A DNA stretch of 51,874 nt from positions 1-51,874 of the IMG/VR virus record IMGVR_UViG_3300045988_065517; one strand, written 5' to 3'. A program made the position numbers and the translations under genes. The notes under the pieces were generated by a model, which was given only the letters and a program-made list of their open reading frames with translations, had not been told where the DNA came from and ran no database searches. The DNA comes from a virus. Positions 5,937 to 20,022 of the stretch are shown here, one piece after another; the first letter of the stretch is position 1, and each line of letters begins with the position of its first letter.

Positions 5937-6084
5937 GTAGTATAGACAGGTAAGATAATTAAATAAACATATTAGAAAATATAATCCTTGATATAATTAG
6001 GTGTATTCACCACATTACCTTTATGATTTGTTACCTGTCTATACTACAGTCATAAGAAGAATACACCTAATTATATCAAGGATT
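5937..6084. repeat. Two interleaved perfect inverted repeats: A 5937-5953 / A' 6031-6047 (17 bp) and B 5983-6008 / B' 6059-6084 (26 bp)
   Basis: GTAGTATAGACAGGTAA pairs with TTACCTGTCTATACTAC. AATCCTTGATATAATTAGGTGTATTC pairs with GAATACACCTAATTATATCAAGGATT. The order is A-B-A'-B'. Confidence 0.9.
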
Positions 6085-11831: not shown

Positions 11832-12086
11832 ATGATAGTTGTTGAAGGTGGAAAAATACAGTTAGAGGGGACACTGGTTGAAATTCAGGCAGAATTAAGT
11901 ACATTGATATATACATTTAATAAGCAAAATATTTTAGATAAGAAGGACCTCGAAGAAGCTATTGCTGAAGGATTTATGAGTGTAGAAGAGCTCAGAAAAG
12001 ACCCTGAAGAACGTCACGAAATAGCAAAGCAATTATTTCCAGAAGGTCACTTATTACACGATATTTTGAAGGATATATTCAGTTAG
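11832..12086 (+). CDS. Hypothetical protein
   Basis: GGAGG RBS, 84 aa. Confidence 0.6.
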   Translation: MIVVEGGKIQLEGTLVEIQAELSTLIYTFNKQNILDKKDLEEAIAEGFMSVEELRKDPEERHEIAKQLFPEGHLLHDILKDIFS

Positions 12087-14357
12087 ATGGCTCTATCTTT
12101 TGCAAGAAAAACAGTTAAAGATAAGAATATAGTCAATAAAGCTAAAAATGCTAAAACAAGAACATCAGTTCGCACAGGAACAAATTTAGCCTCACAAATT
12201 CAGACAATGACAATGATTGCTGAATCTAAATTGGCACATCATAAGGACGATTATATTCTTATCAGAACTGTTGAAGAATTAGAAGAATATAGAAAGGCTA
12301 TAGCAGACGCCGAAGAGTGTGCTATAGATACAGAAACAACAGGATTAAATCCTTTATTGGTTGATTTAGTTGGTGTGTGCTTGTATGTTCCAGGAAAGAA
12401 AGCAGCTTATATACCTGTAGGACATAAGTCACACATCACAGGACAAAAAGTAAATAATCAAATAGAATCAAAGGATTTAATTGAGTTTTTTAATAAATTA
12501 AAAGACGTAAAATGGATATTCCACAATGCTAAATATGATATAAGAGTTCTTAGACATACATTAAGAGTATATCTTGAACCTTATTGGGATACGCAGTTAG
12601 GAGCTTGCTGTATAGATGAGAATGAAAGTCACAGACTTAAAGACTTGCATTTGAAATATTGTGATAGCACAGACACCGAATCACTCACATTTGATAAGTT
12701 ATTTGGGGGAATCACATTTGATTTAGTTCCGATAAAAGTTGCTTACCTCTATGCAGCAGGTGATGCTATTAAGACTTATGAACTTTATCAATACCAAAAA
12801 GGCTTATTGAATAGAAGAGTATTATCTGGTCCTTATAATGTATTCCATAACATTGAAATGCCATTGATTACAGTTGTGGCAGATATGGAAGACAGAGGAG
12901 TATGTCTAGATTCTGAAGTGTGTGAATATTTACACGAAAAATATCATAAAATTAAGGAAGAACGACAGAAACAGGCAGATGAAGCGATAGCGATGTATAA
13001 GGAGCAAATTGATAACTATAAGATGAAGAATCCTAATCATAAGCTATCCGACCCTATTTCTTTAACAAGTCCTACACAGTTGGCTATTCTTTTTTATGAT
13101 ATTTTAGGACTTACAAGCCCTGATAAGAAATCACCTAGAGGTACAGGTGAAGAAATATTGAAACACTTTGCTAAGGGTAAAGAGAAGAATCTATGTGAAG
13201 CAATATTAGGAATCAGAAATGTAGATAAGCTCTTGAATACTTATATAGACAAGATGCCACAGATTGCTCTTGATGATGGTAGAGTACACGCAAGCTATAA
13301 TCAATATGGTGCGAAGACTGGTAGATTTAGCTCTAGTGACCCTAACTTGCAGAATATTCCATCACATAATAAAGAAATCAGAAAGATGTTCAAGGCTCAA
13401 GATGGATATGTATTAATTGGTGCAGATTATAGCCAGCAGGAACCAATGGTTACAGCCCATTTATCAAATGATAAGAAAATGCAAGATGCCTTCATTCACG
13501 GTAAAGATATATATGCTACCATTGCAGGATTAGCATTTCATAAACTTTATGAAGAATGCCTGGAGTTTAGGGAAGATGGAACAGTAAATCCAGCAGGTAA
13601 AGAAAGAAGAACACAGGCAAAAAGCATCGTATTGGGTATCTTGTATGGAAGACAAATTCCATCCATTGCCGAACAATTAGGAGTATCAACCAGAGAAGCT
13701 CAGGATATATATGATGCTGTGTTAAGAGCTTTTCCTCAGTTAGCCCAATTCATTGACGAATCACAGAGGATGGCTAAAGAGTTAGGATATGTGACTACTG
13801 CTTGGGGAAGACGCAGACACCTCAAGGATATGCAATTAGACCAGTATGATTTCAGTTATAGTGGGAATGTAACTAATTTTGACCCATTGGCTTTCGGCAA
13901 GAGTGTTTCCGTTGAAGTCCCTGAAAGCGTTAAAAAAAGTTATATTAAACAGCTAGAAAGAGCCTATGGCTGGCAAAAGAAAAATCAAATAATACAGCAG
14001 GCTTTATCTCAAGGAATTAAAATAAAAGATAATGGTGGATTCATTGCACAAGCAGAAAGACAGTGTGTAAATGCTAGAGTACAAGGTTCTGCAGCAGATA
14101 TGGCTAAATTAGCAATGATAGCGATTAATAATGATGAAAAGATGAAAGAACTTGATTTTCACTTATTAATACAGGTACACGATGAAGTTATAGGGGAATG
14201 TCCAGAAGAGAATATGAAAGAAGCTAGTGAAAGGCTTTCATATCTAATGAGAACAGCACCTAGTCATCTAATCAAATTACCTTTTAAATGTGACTGTGAA
14301 ATTACTCGAAATTGGTATGGTGAAGAAGTGGAGATTGAATTATGGAATTGTATTTAG
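12087..14357 (+). CDS. Family A (Pol I-type) DNA polymerase with a 3'-5' exonuclease domain
   Basis: Exo I DTETTGL. Pol motif A GADYSQQEP, motif B RRTQAKSIVLGILYG and motif C LIQVHDEV. Confidence 0.9.
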   Translation: MALSFARKTVKDKNIVNKAKNAKTRTSVRTGTNLASQIQTMTMIAESKLAHHKDDYILIRTVEELEEYRKAIADAEECAIDTETTGLNPLLVDLVGVCLYVPGKKAAYIPVGHKSHITGQKVNNQIESKDLIEFFNKLKDVKWIFHNAKYDIRVLRHTLRVYLEPYWDTQLGACCIDENESHRLKDLHLKYCDSTDTESLTFDKLFGGITFDLVPIKVAYLYAAGDAIKTYELYQYQKGLLNRRVLSGPYNVFHNIEMPLITVVADMEDRGVCLDSEVCEYLHEKYHKIKEERQKQADEAIAMYKEQIDNYKMKNPNHKLSDPISLTSPTQLAILFYDILGLTSPDKKSPRGTGEEILKHFAKGKEKNLCEAILGIRNVDKLLNTYIDKMPQIALDDGRVHASYNQYGAKTGRFSSSDPNLQNIPSHNKEIRKMFKAQDGYVLIGADYSQQEPMVTAHLSNDKKMQDAFIHGKDIYATIAGLAFHKLYEECLEFREDGTVNPAGKERRTQAKSIVLGILYGRQIPSIAEQLGVSTREAQDIYDAVLRAFPQLAQFIDESQRMAKELGYVTTAWGRRRHLKDMQLDQYDFSYSGNVTNFDPLAFGKSVSVEVPESVKKSYIKQLERAYGWQKKNQIIQQALSQGIKIKDNGGFIAQAERQCVNARVQGSAADMAKLAMIAINNDEKMKELDFHLLIQVHDEVIGECPEENMKEASERLSYLMRTAPSHLIKLPFKCDCEITRNWYGEEVEIELWNCI

Positions 14358-15499
14358 CCGGTGTGGATAGAAAGCATCTAATTAACTCTAAAAATGAAAG
14401 ATTGGATGATACATTATATTCTAATGCTTTATTTAGCTATCTTCAAAAGAATGATATAAATTCCTATATATATAATAGGAATAACTTATATGATATTACG
14501 ACTGATTTATTGAATAATAAAGGATATTTTTATAAAGCTATGAGATTATATTTAGCAGGAGCTGATAAATTTAGAAAGGAAGAAGTGAAACAGTATATGA
14601 AACTTTACTTAGCGGGGATGAAAGAATCTTGTGTAGATAAGATTGATCGTAATGCTTTATTTAGTTATATAGACAAAGGCAAATTGCAATTTGATAAATT
14701 AAAGGATTTCATAAAACCTGGAAAATTGTTCATTGATTCGGGTGCATTCAGTGCTTGGACGAAAGGTGCTAAGATAAACGTGAAGGAATACATTAGATGG
14801 TTGAACGAGAGAGCAGAAGATATACATCTTTGTGGACAAGTAGATGTCATTCCTGGTGATAGAGTATTTGGTGCTACATCTAAGCAGGTTAGAGAAGCTG
14901 CACAGGCAACGTGGGATAATTATCTTTTTATGAGAAAAAGATTGAAGAATCCTTCAGCTTTACTCTATACATATCACGTAGGTGAGCCTATTGAATTTTT
15001 GAAAAGGGCTTTGGAATGGAAGGACGAAAACGGCGAATATATACCTTATATGGCTTTAGGTGGTATGGTAGGAAAACCCGCTAAAATAAGGGATGTATTT
15101 CTTGAAAATTGCTTTAGAACTATAAGAGAATCCAGTAACCCTAATATCAAGGTTCACGCTTTTGGTATGACTGATTTTGAATTATTAGAAAAATATCCTA
15201 TTTATTCAGCCGATAGTACTAGCTGGATTGTGGTAGGGGCAATGGGAAATGTGATGAGTGATTATGGAAATATAGCGGTATCAAATAAACAAATACACGA
15301 TAAGAATCATTATAGTCATCTACCAACGAAAGCTATAGAAGATTTTAGTAAGATAATTCAGGAATTTGGATTCACCCTAGATGAATTAGCTGAACATAGG
15401 GATAACCGTATATTATTTAATGCTTTGTATATGCAGAAGAAAGTGAACGAATTGAATAACAAAGAAAGAAAATTCACTTTTAGAAAAAAACTTTTCTAA
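14342..15499 (+). CDS. dpdA: DpdA-like DNA-guanine transglycosylase (TGT superfamily)
   Basis: TGT-like motifs FIDSGAFSAW, YMALGGMVGK, KVHAFGMTD and YSADSTSW. Adjacent to a preQ0 synthesis gene set. The N-terminus carries a triplicated M-x-LYLAG motif. Confidence 0.7.
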   Translation: MELYLAGVDRKHLINSKNERLDDTLYSNALFSYLQKNDINSYIYNRNNLYDITTDLLNNKGYFYKAMRLYLAGADKFRKEEVKQYMKLYLAGMKESCVDKIDRNALFSYIDKGKLQFDKLKDFIKPGKLFIDSGAFSAWTKGAKINVKEYIRWLNERAEDIHLCGQVDVIPGDRVFGATSKQVREAAQATWDNYLFMRKRLKNPSALLYTYHVGEPIEFLKRALEWKDENGEYIPYMALGGMVGKPAKIRDVFLENCFRTIRESSNPNIKVHAFGMTDFELLEKYPIYSADSTSWIVVGAMGNVMSDYGNIAVSNKQIHDKNHYSHLPTKAIEDFSKIIQEFGFTLDELAEHRDNRILFNALYMQKKVNELNNKERKFTFRKKLF

Positions 15500-15504
15500 A
15501 TCAC

Positions 15505-15533
15505 TTGTATTATCTCCTTATATGTGTTACAAT
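15505..15533 (+). promoter_or_regulatory. Promoter cassette P4 (TTGTAT-N17-TACAAT)
   Basis: TCACTTGTAT...TATGTGTTACAATATATACAAGTTAAGAGATAACAAAC. Confidence 0.65.
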
Positions 15534-15580
15534 ATATACAAGTTAAGAGATAACAAACACATATAAGGAGGATACATATT

Positions 15581-15769
15581 ATGAAATTAGTAAATAACAA
15601 CAAAGGAATTGAATTTGAGGGAACTGCATATGTATACAACACAGAGGACGAAGCAAAGAAAATGCTGGCAGACATCGAAGCAGTAAGCAAGTTTCACAAG
15701 GTAGACATTCACAAAGTTCTGTTTGACACTTGTGTAGAGATTACAGAACCAGTTATGAGCATTAGATAA
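15581..15769 (+). CDS. Hypothetical small protein
   Basis: First ORF after P4, with an AAGGAGG RBS. Confidence 0.65.
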   Translation: MKLVNNNKGIEFEGTAYVYNTEDEAKKMLADIEAVSKFHKVDIHKVLFDTCVEITEPVMSIR

Positions 15770-15985
15770 TTTAAAGTTCTGATGTACAGGTTTCATATAA
15801 AGAAGGTTATAAATATTATCTTCCTGTACATTATTTTATAGCGTATGAACACATAGATTATTTGGATATTATGGAAACTTTTTTGAAGAGTTATTTATAA
15901 TAGAGATTATTAAGAAAGTGAGGAAACCACTATGAATAAAAAACCAGATTCATCGTAGTATGTCAAAAGGAGAGTTCTATTTTAT

Positions 15986-16402
15986 ATGATTGTTTTAATT
16001 GGATGTGGAAAGAAGAAAAATAATATTGAGTGTGAAGCTCGGTATATGTATCAAGGCGATTTTTTCATAACTTGTTTAAACTATGCAAAAACATTTAATT
16101 GTCCAATTTATATCTTGTCTGCAAAATATGGTTTACTATCTTTAAATACAGTTATTGCTCCATACGATATGACATTAAATAGTATGAATCGCGAAGAATC
16201 TCTATGTTGGGCTAGGTATGTCAAGCAACAGTTTGATGAAAATCATCTTGAAAACGAGAAAGCAATTTTTTTATGTGGGAAAAATTATTATAAATATTTA
16301 TTGGATTATTTTAAAGAGTATGAGTTACCATTAAAAGGATTGTCTGGGATGGGGTATCAAATTCAGTATATGAAATCAAAAATGAAAAGGAGATTATTTT
16401 AA
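15986..16402 (+). CDS. DUF6884-like protein of unknown function, embedded in the deazaguanine island
   Basis: MIVLIGCGKKK...YMYQGDFF...YILSAKYGLLSLNTVIAPYDMTL matches my recollection of the DUF6884 signature (GC..K / SAK.GLL / PYD). Its stop overlaps the queC start (TAATG). Confidence 0.5.
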   Translation: MIVLIGCGKKKNNIECEARYMYQGDFFITCLNYAKTFNCPIYILSAKYGLLSLNTVIAPYDMTLNSMNREESLCWARYVKQQFDENHLENEKAIFLCGKNYYKYLLDYFKEYELPLKGLSGMGYQIQYMKSKMKRRLF

Positions 16403-17103
16403 TGAAAGCATTAGTATTAAATTCAGGTGGTGTAGATTCAACAACTTGTGTTGCAATAGCAGTAGATAAATATGGTAAAGAAAATGTTATAACAGCTTCT
16501 TTATATTATGGTCAGAAACACGATAAAGAATTACAGTGTGCTAGGAAGATAGCAGATTATTATGATGTAAGACATATTGAAGAAGATATATCTAATGTTA
16601 TGAAGTATGCAGGAGAAGTTTGTTCCCTTGTTAAGGGTTCTAAGGATGAAATCTTGGATATGAGTTATGCCGACCAGATTAAGCAGAATGGAGAGGGTAG
16701 AGTTGGTACTTATGTACCTTTCAGAAATGGTTTACTTCTTTCTATTGCAACTGCTTTTGCAGATAGTTTATTTCCTGGAGAAGAAGTAGAAATCTTTTAC
16801 GGAGCCCACGCAGATGATGCAGCGGGTGAAGCTTATGCCGATTGTTCTCCAGAATTTGCAGATGCTATGGATAAGGCAATTAATATTGGAACTTATGGTA
16901 AGATTCATATTAACAGACCTCTTATTCATTTGAATAAAGCCGGAGTCGTAGCTGAAGGATTAAAGCTCAATGTACCTTATGAATTAACCTGGAGCTGTTA
17001 TCACGGACGAGAAAAGGCTTGTGGTGTTTGTGGTACTTGTATAGATAGAATAGCAGCCTTCAAGGCTAACGGTATTGAGGACCCCATCTCTTATGAGAAT
17101 TAG
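16402..17103 (+). CDS. queC: 7-cyano-7-deazaguanine (preQ0) synthase
   Basis: PP-loop LNSGGVDSTTC and C-terminal Zn cluster CYHG..KACGVCGTC. Confidence 0.9.
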   Translation: MKALVLNSGGVDSTTCVAIAVDKYGKENVITASLYYGQKHDKELQCARKIADYYDVRHIEEDISNVMKYAGEVCSLVKGSKDEILDMSYADQIKQNGEGRVGTYVPFRNGLLLSIATAFADSLFPGEEVEIFYGAHADDAAGEAYADCSPEFADAMDKAINIGTYGKIHINRPLIHLNKAGVVAEGLKLNVPYELTWSCYHGREKACGVCGTCIDRIAAFKANGIEDPISYEN

Positions 17104-17191
17104 GGAAAATATAGTTTTTTGGATAGCCATAGGTATTCAGGTATTAGCTTTAATATTAGCATTATTAATTTATAGATACGGAGGAAAATAA

Positions 17192-17542
17192 ATGTATTAT
17201 GTTTCTAAAAAAATGGAGATAGCAGGAGCACACCAGTTGAAATTATCTTACGAGAGTAAGTGTGAGAATCTGCACGGTCATAACTGGATTATCACTGTAT
17301 TCTGTAAATCCGAAAAATTAAATAAGGATGGTATGATTGTAGATTTTGCCAAAGTTAAGAAAGAGATTCACGGAGCTCTAGACCACAGCTTTATCAATGA
17401 TGTAGTGGAGCCCCTAAACCCTACAGCCGAGAATATAGCTAGATGGGTAGCAAGTAAGGTCACAGCCTTATGTGAAGTTGGCTATTGCTATAAAGTACAG
17501 GTTCAGGAAAGTGAAGGCAATATTGCCACATACGAGGTATAG
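17192..17542 (+). CDS. queD: 6-carboxy-5,6,7,8-tetrahydropterin synthase
   Basis: CENLHGHNW motif, about 116 aa, PTPS fold size. Confidence 0.85.
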   Translation: MYYVSKKMEIAGAHQLKLSYESKCENLHGHNWIITVFCKSEKLNKDGMIVDFAKVKKEIHGALDHSFINDVVEPLNPTAENIARWVASKVTALCEVGYCYKVQVQESEGNIATYEV

Positions 17543-17546
17543 AGAG

Positions 17547-18194
17547 ATGAGAGTTGTTGAAATATTCAAGAGTATTGATGGTGAGGGTAAGCGTGCAGGC
17601 TTACCTACCACTTTCATAAGACTATATGGGTGTAATCTAAATTGTTCCTATTGTGATACAAGATATGGGTGTGAAGATTCTAATTATACGACTATGAGTC
17701 TGGATGAGATACTAGATAAGGTTGAAGACTTAGGTGTATCTCGTGTTACTCTTACAGGAGGCGAGCCTCTTCTAAAGCCAGATGTAAAAGATTTAATAGA
17801 ACTTCTAAATCGTATGAACTATGATGTTAATATTGAGACAAATGGTTCTATAGATTTTCAACCATTTGTTAAAGGACTTGCTCACGTGTTCGTTACTATG
17901 GATTATAAATGTCCTATAAGTGGAATGGAGAAAAAGATGTATTTGCCAAACCTTAGGGCTTTACGTCAGAAGGACGTGTTAAAATTCGTCGTAGGTAGTC
18001 CAGAAGACTTAGAAAGGGCTAAATATGTTATAGAATTAGTACAGCCTAAGGCACAGATATATTTCAGTCCTGTATTCGGTAAGATAGAGCCTGCCGATAT
18101 TGTAGATTTTATTTTACAGAATAATCTAGAAAATTGTAGAGTTCAGCTACAGCTGCATAAGATTATCTGGGACCCTAATAAGAGAGGAGTATAA
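17547..18194 (+). CDS. queE: 7-carboxy-7-deazaguanine synthase (radical SAM)
   Basis: [18 protein letters not shown]...[10 protein letters not shown]. The ATG at 17547 is preferred over the track start at 17472, which lies inside queD. Confidence 0.85.
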
Positions 18195-18196
18195 TT

Positions 18197-18766
18197 ATGA
18201 TTAATAAAGAATTGATTGAGAAAAGCATTAGAAATATTTTAATTGCTTTAGGTGATGACCCGGAGAGAGAAGGTCTGAAGGAAACACCTAAAAGAGTTGC
18301 CAAGATGTATGAAGAAGTCTTCGAAGGAATGAACTATACGAACGAGGAAATTGCAGAAAAATTTAGCAAGTGCTTCAATACAGATAATAATGATTTGGTC
18401 GTTGTTCAGGATATTCCAATCTTCAGTTACTGCGAACACCATTTAGCTTTGATGTATAATATGAAGGTGTCTATCGCTTACATACCTAATGGTAAGGTGC
18501 TAGGTTTAAGTAAATTTGCCAGAATTGCAGAAATGGTGGGTAAGAGATTACAGTTACAGGAAAAGATTGGTAATGATATAGCCGAAGTTATTCAGTTAGC
18601 GACAGGTTCTAAAGATGTTCTTGTCGTTGTAGAAGGTGAACATTCTTGTATGACAGCTCGTGGCATCAAGAGCAGGGGTTCTAAGACACGAACCTCTACT
18701 ATTCGTGGAAACTTCAGGGATAACATTGAATTAAGAAAAGAAGCATATTCTTTAATGAATTTATAG
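18197..18766 (+). CDS. folE: GTP cyclohydrolase I
   Basis: [20 protein letters not shown] and SYCEHHL motifs. Confidence 0.9.
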
Positions 18767-18780
18767 GAGGATTTTAAAAA

Positions 18781-19872
18781 ATGAAAGTAGCTACACAGAG
18801 ATTTAAAGAAGCCGTAAATAAGGCAATTAAGGGAGCTTCATTTAATAATTTAATTCCTATAACAGGAATGTTAGGCATTAAATTATCGGATGGAAAGTTG
18901 CGATTGCTTACAACAGATATGACTAATACACTATGTATTATCATTGACAAAGTAGCTGGAGACAATATGGACATTACAGTAGATGCAGATAAGTTTGGAA
19001 AGTTGATTGTCAAAACAACTTCGGAAGATATTGATTTATCTGTGAAGGATGATGTACTTTCTGTTAGGGGGAACGGAACTTATAAGATTCCATTGATTTC
19101 CGATGAAGATGGTCTTGTATCTTTCCCTGATATTAGAAGCGACACATCAGAGACAGAAGATTGGTCAACAGTTAAGTTATCCAGCATAATGCAGGCTTAT
19201 AATATTAATAAGTCAGCTTTAGCTAAAACCTTAGAGAATCCAGCTCTTACAGGTTATTACTGTGATGATAAGGTAATCACCACAGACGCCAATGTCATCA
19301 CATTCAATAATTTCAGAATGTTCACAGAAGAATTTGGACCTTTATTAATTTCAGCTCAGCAGATGCAGTTATTAACATTATATAAGGAAGAAGATATTAA
19401 GGTTACAGTTGACCAGGAAACAATCATATTCGCTACAGAATCACAGGTAATTGAAGGAAGCCTTATGGAAGGAATTGAAGATTTCCCAGTTGAAGAAATC
19501 GGAGCATATTTAGATGTTGCTTTCACTTCATCCTGTAAAGTGCCTAAGGAATTACTCTTATCTGTATTAGACAGATTATCATTATTCATAGAACCTTATG
19601 ATAAGAACGGAGCTTACTTCACTTTTGGTAGAAAGGGAATTAACATTCACAGTAAGAAAGACGCTTCTGTAGAGGCCATTAACTATGTAGAAAGTAAGGA
19701 CTTTGAACCGTTCGTGTGCTGTGTAGATATTCCAATGTTGAAAGAACAGTTGCAGGCTTACCCAGAGGAAACAGTCAAGCTCTGGTATGGGAATGAAAAT
19801 GCCTTGAAGCTGGAATGTGGAAAGGTTATTCAGGTCATCGCTTTATTAGAAGATGAAAGTCTTGAAAATTAA
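18781..19872 (+). CDS. DnaN-like sliding clamp (beta-clamp)
   Basis: 363 aa. The N-terminal pattern K..F.EAV.K......N.IPITGML.I.L.DGKL.L.TTD, then ..VDA.KF..L, parallels bacterial DnaN. Clamp-loader genes are present downstream. Confidence 0.65.
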   Translation: MKVATQRFKEAVNKAIKGASFNNLIPITGMLGIKLSDGKLRLLTTDMTNTLCIIIDKVAGDNMDITVDADKFGKLIVKTTSEDIDLSVKDDVLSVRGNGTYKIPLISDEDGLVSFPDIRSDTSETEDWSTVKLSSIMQAYNINKSALAKTLENPALTGYYCDDKVITTDANVITFNNFRMFTEEFGPLLISAQQMQLLTLYKEEDIKVTVDQETIIFATESQVIEGSLMEGIEDFPVEEIGAYLDVAFTSSCKVPKELLLSVLDRLSLFIEPYDKNGAYFTFGRKGINIHSKKDASVEAINYVESKDFEPFVCCVDIPMLKEQLQAYPEETVKLWYGNENALKLECGKVIQVIALLEDESLEN

Positions 19873-19940
19873 TACAAGATATACTATAATATGAATTGAT
19901 AAAGATTATCATTTGTTTAAATACTTTAACTTTTCTTGGA

Positions 19941-19974
19941 TAGGACCTCATTTTTTAATGGGGTTCTATTTTTT
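19941..19974 (+). terminator. Rho-independent terminator
   Basis: TAGGACCTC...GGGGTTCTA stem (2 G-U pairs) followed by T6. Confidence 0.7.
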
Positions 19975-19993
19975 AATTTTTTTAAATTTATTA

Positions 19994-20022
19994 TTGACAT
20001 ATGTATTACAATATGTTATACT
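19994..20022 (+). promoter_or_regulatory. Promoter cassette P5 (TTGACA-N17-TGtTATACT)
   Basis: Consensus -35 and an extended -10. The upstream TTTTTTAATTTTTTTAAATTTATTA block and the leader are nearly identical to P6. Confidence 0.85.

Follow-up and report, generated by a model that had tools for sequence, protein, structure and literature searches.

A viral DpdA1 and preQ0 island with an embedded relative of the N-terminal domain of DpdC

Which 7-deazaguanine, if any, would a virus carrying the genes to make one place in its DNA? We addressed this question for positions 14342 to 18766 of the IMG/VR virus record IMGVR_UViG_3300045988_065517, the whole analysed stretch of which (51,874 nucleotides) is called here the window. 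An earlier note, made from the sequence alone, had read this region as a complete 7-deazaguanine DNA-modification island, with 2'-deoxy-preQ0 (dPreQ0) as the default end product unless its unassigned open reading frames (ORFs) added a further step. All ORFs of the island were confirmed, in a single + strand block that runs from an ORF of 385 residues through ORFs of 62 and 138 residues to queC, queD, queE and folE:

14342-15499, + strand: dpdA, predicted DNA guanine transglycosylase of the phage DpdA1 type, 385 residues (PHROG 887 'queuine tRNA-ribosyltransferase', E 7.5e-49)
15581-15769, + strand: ORF of 62 residues with a strong AAGGAGG ribosome-binding site and no homologue
15986-16402, + strand: gene for a DUF6884 protein of 138 residues, here called mini-DpdC (PF21818, E 1.5e-35)
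16402-17103, + strand: queC, 7-cyano-7-deazaguanine (preQ0) synthase (PF06508, E 1.4e-52; TIGR00364, 156.9 bits, cutoff 150.3)
17192-17542, + strand: queD, 6-carboxytetrahydropterin synthase (PF01242 (PTPS), E 1.9e-29, 102.5 bits, cutoff 22.4)
17547-18194, + strand: queE (TIGR03963, Clostridial type, E 2.1e-85, 285.8 bits, cutoff 260.1)
18197-18766, + strand: folE, GTP cyclohydrolase I, first step of the preQ0 pathway (PF01227, E 5e-66; NF006826, 240.9 bits, cutoff 162)

The island as a whole is a further member of the well-known phage systems that combine DpdA1 with preQ0 synthesis, and very probably it modifies DNA with some 7-deazaguanine. Its new part is the embedded mini-DpdC which, as judged by sequence comparison, is a homologue of the DpdC N-terminal domain (catalytic in appearance) and is predicted to have a YaaA-like DNA-binding fold. 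We consider the chances about balanced that DpdA inserts preQ0 and that mini-DpdC then hydrates its nitrile, giving dADG.

The supply of the modified base was assessed from family matches. Five contiguous genes of the same pathway, with E values from 1e-29 to 1e-85, exclude a chance assembly, and the five-gene block was seen again in related contigs. FolE, QueE and QueC scored above their curated cutoffs; QueD was marginally under the cutoff of TIGR03367 (88.7 vs 89.25 bits) and over that of Pfam. The four genes form the complete preQ0 pathway that the earlier note had recognised. The translations displayed the PP-loop SGGVDS and a C-terminal Cys cluster in QueC, the CxxxHGH motif in QueD and the CxxxCxxC motif in QueE. 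At 233 residues QueC is not a fusion with an amidotransferase (Gat-QueC); its first codon and the stop codon of the DUF6884 gene overlap. The queE ORF as listed opens at a GTG at 17472. Since the TIGR03963 match begins at residue 26 of that ORF, the most likely start is the ATG at 17547, which lies four bases past the queD stop. Based on the functions of their families, FolE, QueD, QueE and QueC would take GTP to the free base preQ0 (7-cyano-7-deazaguanine). With the proteins of relatives as queries, the whole window revealed no QueF, Gat-QueC or ArcS-like gene, in agreement with the note, and no YhhQ/Vut_1 transporter, ParB/DpdB, GIY-YIG, phosphoribosyltransferase or dCMP deaminase gene.

The description of the 14342-15499 product as a DpdA-like member of the TGT (tRNA-guanine transglycosylase) superfamily required checking, since it had no Pfam TGT hit and reached only 24.2 bits on the NCBIfam model of bacterial DpdA (NF041059), against a cutoff of 200. 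The description holds. Searches of the PDB with the single sequence and with a profile hidden Markov model (HMM) returned nothing, and the comparison of folds alone succeeded. In the AlphaFold model, which is confident for residues ~105-372 (pLDDT mostly 80-96), the ten best PDB fold matches were all of the TGT family (probability 1.0, E 1.6e-6 to 6.5e-5) and included ArcTGT 1iq8 (E 1.6e-6), QTRT1 and bacterial TGT, indicating a TIM-barrel fold of the TGT superfamily. Residues D132 (FIDSGAF) and D291 (SADSTSW) were invariant among 42 DpdA homologues; we take both to be the equivalents of TGT D102 and D280. A tblastn search with the protein matched 238 phage records, among them MS1 (E 4e-54) and several phages shown to have 7-deazaguanines in their DNA: Dp-1 (1e-47), Iggy (4e-26), Vid5 (1e-24), 9g (6e-23) and Rosebush (5e-6). 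The closest experimentally studied DpdA is that of Dp-1, with 41% identity over 62% of the query. Over its core the window protein shares 30-41% identity with DpdA from phages in which 7-deazaguanine DNA has been measured (9g, Iggy, Dp-1), as dPreQ1, dPreQ0 or dG+ (PMC6884629; PMC10484667). No match was obtained to phages with DpdA2 (nt-1) or DpdA4 (HVTV-1), which places the window protein in the DpdA1 group, nearest to the Dp-1/MS1/Flasso branch. It is predicted, from homology to validated phage DpdAs, to exchange G for a 7-deazaguanine base in DNA.

For comparison with bacteria we used 79 bacterial dpd loci, in which an NCBIfam check gave 538-547 bits for DpdA and 459 bits for DpdB. Alignment of the phage DpdA family with bona fide bacterial DpdA by hhalign (96.1% probability, E 2.9e-9) paired D132, H272 and D291 with the invariant bacterial residues D103, H243 and D265. 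The bacterial zinc motif CxCxxC...H (invariant C388/C390/C393/H415) had no counterpart in the phage family alignment, indicating that the window protein is a DpdA in the phage sense, outside the bacterial equivalog.

These data bear on a reading in which the island would not act on DNA at all and would serve to boost the supply of queuosine precursors, or to modify tRNA, in aid of phage translation. Most database annotations do name DpdA homologues 'queuine tRNA-ribosyltransferase', and for phages that have que genes but lack DpdA an increase in host queuosine has been proposed (PMC6884629). The window DpdA nevertheless groups with DNA-acting phage DpdAs rather than with tRNA TGTs, as the absence of a Pfam TGT hit and of a conserved zinc motif in the family alignment also indicates; its gene lies within a replication module, between polA and a clamp gene, and is accompanied by that of a DNA-binding DUF6884 protein. 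We find a role in tRNA modification scarcely credible. The proposal of the earlier note, a system exchanging G for a 7-deazaguanine in restriction evasion, is well supported, with the exchange placed after replication. DpdA would swap G for preQ0 in double-stranded phage DNA by means of D132 and D291 and without DpdB, as homology to validated phage DpdAs suggests. Such DNA would be protected from restriction enzymes, and possibly also from other defences in which G or the nitrile side chain is the feature recognised.

The N-terminus of DpdA (14342-14650, residues 1-103) consists of three repeats of an M-x-LYLAG...NALFSY module, each beginning with Met: MELYLAG at residue 1, MRLYLAG at residue 67 and MKLYLAG at residue 86, with NALFSY present twice. 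The copy number of the module in homologues ranges from one to about five, and AlphaFold was unable to place residues 3-102. The repeats look like a serial duplication of the 5' end of the gene, start codon included. Two close relatives (L007, L009) have a GIY-YIG homing endonuclease gene inserted precisely between polA and dpdA, and a homing endonuclease at that boundary might drive the duplications. An internal dpdA start at M67 or M86 was rejected, as M1 is preceded by the better ribosome-binding site and homologues of full length are frequent.

Of the two extra ORFs that had been noticed between dpdA and queC, the longer (138 residues) was modelled by AlphaFold2 with a pLDDT of 95.3. Its sole fold match in the PDB was the DNA-binding protein YaaA (5caj; Foldseek E 1.4e-4, TMq 0.61); no DpdC structure was among the PDB fold matches of the model. 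A PDB sequence search produced chance hits, and a profile reached YaaA at E 0.009 over the LSAxxG region. The fold alone is shared with YaaA: the window protein scored 15.3 bits on the NCBIfam YaaA model (cutoff 204) and had no PF03883 hit. The E. coli protein (DUF328) has the same 'cantaloupe' alpha/beta fold, but it is ~260 residues long with an extra N-terminal segment of ~85 residues, and it has a role in peroxide stress and no link to 7-deazaguanine. In 50 homologues of the DUF6884 protein, C7, K11, Y22, L44-S45-A46, W75 and Y101 were invariant. The Pfam curators have proposed CxxxK and LSAxxG as the active site of a DNA-binding, base-flipping protein (PMC11701544).

In bacteria, DpdA and DpdB insert preQ0; the change of preQ0-DNA into ADG-DNA is then made by DpdC, which in vitro acts independently of both (PMC10164549). 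DpdC has been annotated as DUF6884 (PMC12235509) or as the related DUF328 (PMC5699537, PMC12839542). Searching plasmids for annotated DpdC by tblastn with the window protein returned only short 'DUF6884 domain-containing' genes. DpdC was reached through the DpdB domain of Myxococcus phage Mx4 followed by a genome scan, and ORFs adjoining NCBIfam-verified DpdA/DpdB were taken as the bona fide set. The ORFs of ~305-340 residues that adjoin DpdB in bacterial dpd loci matched the phage DUF6884 HMM. The match is reciprocal: six PADLOC DpdC models recognise the window protein, the best with E 1.9e-8. Five of these DpdB-adjoining ORFs were sampled and are DpdC by PADLOC over their full length, with E 1e-56 to 1e-98. 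When the phage DUF6884 family was aligned by hhalign with 21 bona fide DpdC, 111 columns were matched (98.0% probability, E 1.9e-13), spanning positions 3-115 of the family and 5-165 of DpdC, with the following shared motifs:

CxxxK: CGKKK in the phage family, CT(S/N)RK in DpdC
MYQG in the phage family, LYxG in DpdC
ILSAKYGLL in the phage family, V(L/A)SAGxG(L/F) in DpdC
PYxxT in the phage family, PYxLT in DpdC
W75 in the phage family, WW in DpdC

The positions common to the DUF6884 family and DpdC are exactly the invariant ones.

Partners of the short phage proteins were sought in their gene neighbourhoods. In the window, DpdA is encoded one ORF upstream of the DUF6884 gene, and one IMG/VR contig encodes an identical DUF6884 protein. 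The five metagenomic relatives first examined (88, 60, 55, 55 and 45% identity) all lie within DpdA/que islands of variable gene order. We then took a census of 80 IMG/VR viral DUF6884 loci, a redundant sample. A DpdA gene was present at 10 kb or less in 49/80, usually as the adjacent gene 0.5-1.5 kb away, and at least one Dpd or que gene was near in 57/80; after clustering at 60% identity, 26 of the 30 clusters were linked. QueF was found in 0/80 loci, and none had a QueC of Gat-QueC length. Correspondingly, tblastn found no DUF6884 gene in the QueF-bearing phages Dp-1 and Flasso. Such a complementary pattern, although mutual exclusivity with QueF was only sampled, is expected of two alternative enzymes that both consume the nitrile.

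Isolated viruses of unrelated lineages displayed the same association. Fusobacterium phage phiFN37 has ParB-like, DpdA, DUF6884 and YhhQ genes, and Acinetobacter phage HD01 has DUF6884, QueE, QueC, QueD, FolE and DpdA. In the archaeal Halorubrum virus HRTV-29 (genus Dpdavirus; L021 14251-15376), a gene annotated 'peroxide stress protein YaaA' overlaps that of DpdA; in our analysis its product is a DUF6884 protein, so that the annotation is probably misleading. In Mx4 (OK085710.1, L020:5663-7471) DUF6884 and a full-length DpdB (PADLOC E 5e-123) form a single fusion protein. ParB_N neighbours occur in 26/80 of the viral loci and the link to DpdB is otherwise the Mx4 fusion; the window has neither. 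In a rough neighbour-joining tree the DpdA-linked DUF6884 clade of low-GC phages is sister to a GIY-YIG-linked clade, and HD01, HRTV-29 and Mx4 fall elsewhere. This scattered placement suggests several independent recruitments to Dpd components.

A recurrent cassette of four genes (ParB_N-like, DpdA, DUF6884 and a Vut_1/YhhQ transporter) and without que genes was observed in phiFN37 (L003 5706-8015), in L107 (4762-7028) and in ~20 IMG/VR loci, for example L119, L127 and L142. Its make-up resembles a DpdB-A-C module in miniature, one that would salvage its preQ0 from host or environmental sources. The GenBank coding sequence Mx4_p14 begins at 6068, which leaves the DUF6884 part of the Mx4 fusion unannotated. 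A DpdB domain 91% identical to that of Mx4 lies in an ORF that also bears DUF6884 on the chromosome of Myxococcus sp. Y35 (L024), presumably in a prophage.

Since the DUF6884 ORF is homologous to the N-terminal domain of DpdC and recurrently linked to viral DpdA, dPreQ0 is probably incomplete as the end product; the reservation made along with it, that an unassigned ORF might add a step, applies. In the proposed last step, mini-DpdC, a predicted dPreQ0-DNA nitrile hydratase, would hydrate the nitrile on the DNA to give dADG, using the invariant Cys7/Lys11 pair and possibly passing through a thioimidate intermediate at Cys7.

Several observations weigh against this step. The window protein has 138 residues, against ~310 for DpdC, and ends where the N-terminal domain of DpdC ends. 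The phage protein lacks both the insert of ~35 residues that follows CxxxK in DpdC and the C-terminal domain (~150 residues, with invariant R215, R285, C292, R296 and F297 and the motif 'ACEQxRF'). Its best DpdC model score is 32 bits, compared with 188-328 for true DpdC, and the full-length DpdC architecture is absent. Its nearest PADLOC model is PDC-M57A, matched over the full length (E 2.8e-38, 129 bits vs 32 bits for DpdC). DUF6884 members ~44-46% identical to it pair or fuse with GIY-YIG or HNH nucleases and have no que genes nearby, and the DpdC models match nuclease-linked and DpdA-linked members about equally weakly, so that the likeness to DpdC is one at the level of the superfamily. 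Among the viral loci, 23/80 have no Dpd or que neighbour, and none was found beside the DUF6884 genes of the isolated phages Caulobacter W2, Bradyrhizobium BDU-MI-1 and Streptomyces Ponzi. DpdA was not found in Mx4, W2, BDU-MI-1 or Ponzi with the queries used, which very divergent DpdAs could escape, as the HMM did not detect HRTV-29's own DpdA. Finally, for YfjM, a DUF6884 protein of B. subtilis, the published link is to abasic and RNA lesions instead (PMC11701544).

Some of these points favour an alternative in which dPreQ0 is the final base and the DUF6884 protein an accessory that leaves the side chain unchanged, for instance a base-flipping DNA-binding helper in place of DpdB, a shield or processor of abasic intermediates, or an anti-defence decoy. 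They are the missing C-terminal domain, the nuclease partners that the short family has where que genes are absent, and the DNA binding of DUF6884/YaaA proteins, YfjM having been pulled down on abasic and RNA lesions. Moreover, in E. coli phage DpdA1 needs no partner to insert preQ0 (PMC6884629, Table 1), and many phages with DpdA and the preQ0 genes stop at dPreQ0 (CAjan, Rosebush, Iggy). A generic helper of DpdA would, however, be expected in islands with QueF or Gat-QueC as well, at odds with the census. The residues in common with DpdC are invariant and active-site-like, and the sole member of the superfamily with demonstrated activity in this pathway is an enzyme that turns a nitrile into an amide (PMC10164549). 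We regard dPreQ0 as a possible, if rather doubtful, end product.

The nitrile might also be lost before insertion. Host QueF would then reduce the phage-made preQ0 to preQ1, and DpdA would insert preQ1 to yield dPreQ1 DNA, as in Dp-1. The nearest studied DpdA is indeed that of Dp-1, whose DNA carries dPreQ1, and the preference of DpdA for preQ0 or preQ1 has switched several times (PMC10516641). Dp-1 and Flasso, on the other hand, encode their own QueF-type enzyme, whereas the window and all DUF6884-bearing islands do not, and a nitrile-directed, DpdC-like enzyme would be left without substrate. This route appears highly unlikely.

The match to PDC-M57A raises a different possibility. PDC-M57 is a PADLOC candidate defence pair made of a DUF6884 protein, 'M57A', and a GIY-YIG nuclease, 'M57B'. 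The window protein fits M57A over its full length and has the same invariant residues, but the window has no GIY-YIG partner and is therefore not a PDC-M57 locus; the neighbours are DpdA and QueC instead. We consider it unlikely that short DUF6884 proteins are a general module for reading and processing preQ0 in DNA, with the phage proteins and, by means of an extra domain, DpdC hydrolysing an adduct to the amide, and with the module of bacteria and plasmids, paired or fused with a GIY-YIG or HNH nuclease (PDC-M57), acting in modification-dependent restriction to cut dPreQ0-modified phage DNA. In that case the Cys/Lys pair would attack the nitrile of a flipped-out 7-cyano-7-deazaguanine, and dADG would hide that nitrile. 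Mini-DpdC would then serve the phage in two ways, in tailoring the base and in countering its own bacterial cousins.

Loci of the PDC-M57 kind were observed in bacterial contigs, on a plasmid and as gene fusions. L017 (7001-8048) and L108 (6001-7055, beside AbiEii) match the M57A/M57B models or share the GIY_YIG_3 family, and DUF6884 is paired with a GIY-YIG gene in L110 (5453-6429) and in the plasmid locus L105 (2587-3914). L133, L134, L136, L137 and L139 encode DUF6884/GIY-YIG fusions of 459-474 residues, and an HNH endonuclease gene adjoins DUF6884 on a Burkholderia plasmid (L103). PDC-M57 could be a reader of 7-deazaguanine DNA.

How does a mini-DpdC step compare with known systems? The phage DpdA1 and preQ0 islands of CAjan, 9g, Iggy, Dp-1/MS1 and Flasso contain the same five enzyme families, and, as in the window, the genes that come after dpdA in Dp-1, MS1 and Flasso encode DnaN and a Cas4/RecB-like nuclease. 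DUF6884 is absent from all of these phages. QueF is present in Dp-1 and Flasso and Gat-QueC in 9g, whereas the window has neither; it also lacks the precursor transporter encoded by Dp-1 and MS1, and its DpdA differs by the repeated N-terminal extension of ~100 residues. The bacterial DpdA-DpdB-DpdC system of Salmonella Montevideo (PMC10164549) likewise combines a transglycosylase with a DUF6884-domain protein, and the order proposed for the window would be the same, preQ0 being inserted and then hydrated to ADG in the DNA. In contrast to that system, the window DpdA falls short of the equivalog (24 vs 200 bits) and has no zinc motif, DpdB and the restriction genes dpdD-K are absent, and the DUF6884 protein is less than half as long as DpdC. 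In bacteria the Dpd mark serves as a self label on ~1 in 1000 nucleotides (PMC10164549); for phage DpdAs, replacement of between ~0.1% and ~30% of G has been measured elsewhere.

The same predicted end product, dADG, is found in Campylobacter phages of the CP220 type (DpdA3 with QueC*). There the proposal is that the QueC paralogue goes no further than free ADG and that DpdA3 inserts this base (PMC10516641), whereas the window has a canonical QueC and the amide would form on the DNA. No DUF6884 was detected in Campylobacter phages by tblastn. Published sources of dADG in phage DNA are the Campylobacter QueC paralogue, a promiscuous ArcS and spontaneous oxidation, and the mechanism "remains poorly explained" (PMC8306585; PMC6884629). 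The phage tailoring enzymes named in the literature searched are QueF, Gat-QueC, ArcS2, QueC*, DpdL, DpdM and DpdN, with DpdC mentioned solely as a bacterial protein (PMC10516641; PMC6884629). We rejected the idea that DUF6884 is one of them under another name, as DpdM is DUF3109, DpdL a QueD paralogue and DpdN a formyltransferase. In the literature searched there was no phage DpdC and no DUF6884, DUF328 or YaaA-like phage gene tied to DpdA, although an earlier description elsewhere is possible.

Should mini-DpdC act as proposed, it would open a simple enzymatic way to dADG for a large group of phages, most of them uncultivated and some human-associated. It would give a function to a domain of unknown function, define the minimal catalytic core of DpdC and offer a lead on PDC-M57. 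The identity of the side chain matters because defence glycosylases tell 7-deazaguanine variants apart (bioRxiv 10.1101/2025.10.29.685425). DNA modification has consequences, too, for restriction mapping, for base-calling in nanopore sequencing and for phage-therapy design.

Three further features complete the locus, two flanking the island and one within it:

12087-14357: polA, family-A DNA polymerase gene, flanking the island upstream
15787-15888, + strand: decayed C-terminal remnant of the 176-residue ORF of relatives (tblastn match)
18781-19872: DnaN-like sliding-clamp gene, flanking the island downstream

The replication module resembles those of Dp-1, MS1 and Flasso, with primase, PolA, clamp, Cas4-like nuclease, RecA and clamp-loader subunits. 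The close relatives of the window are uncultivated Caudoviricetes contigs of ~55 kb from metagenomes; a megablast of window positions 12000-20000 against GenBank phages gave no match. A terminator-like hairpin (19938-19971, 15 pairs and a T-run), the one feature that stood out, lies 3' of the clamp gene and is flanked by a pair of near-consensus sigma-70-like promoters (19862-19890 and 19994-20022, each 11/12). These suggest that the block from polA through dpdA and the que genes to the clamp gene is one transcription unit, on a promoter and terminator scan that overall was not above the expectation from shuffled sequence.

The interval between dpdA and the DUF6884 gene (15500-15985) is probably a variable, decaying spacer. 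The 62-residue ORF had no hit in Pfam, NCBIfam, PHROGs or PADLOC, nor in related contigs, and close relatives hold an unrelated ORF of 148-176 residues in its place. With the 176-residue protein of L009/L010 (residues 144-173) as query, tblastn matched the window with 47% identity over 34 residues (E 6e-4), in no intact ORF. The 62-residue ORF and this remnant are probably bystanders, as far as their sequences tell; the former was rejected as a pathway component, being conserved in no relative. The spacer also contains a mini-ORF of eight codons at 15933-15959.

Two more distant relatives of the island, L012 (8514-10140) and L014 (8241-9965), have extra genes between DUF6884 and queD: a phosphoribosyltransferase-like ORF (VDDIxDTG, Pfam E 5.5e-5), a dCMP deaminase and a DUF3268-PTPS fusion. 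The latter is a second QueD-like protein, reminiscent of DpdL. In both, polA is split by GIY-YIG homing endonucleases, and these islands may make a different derivative.

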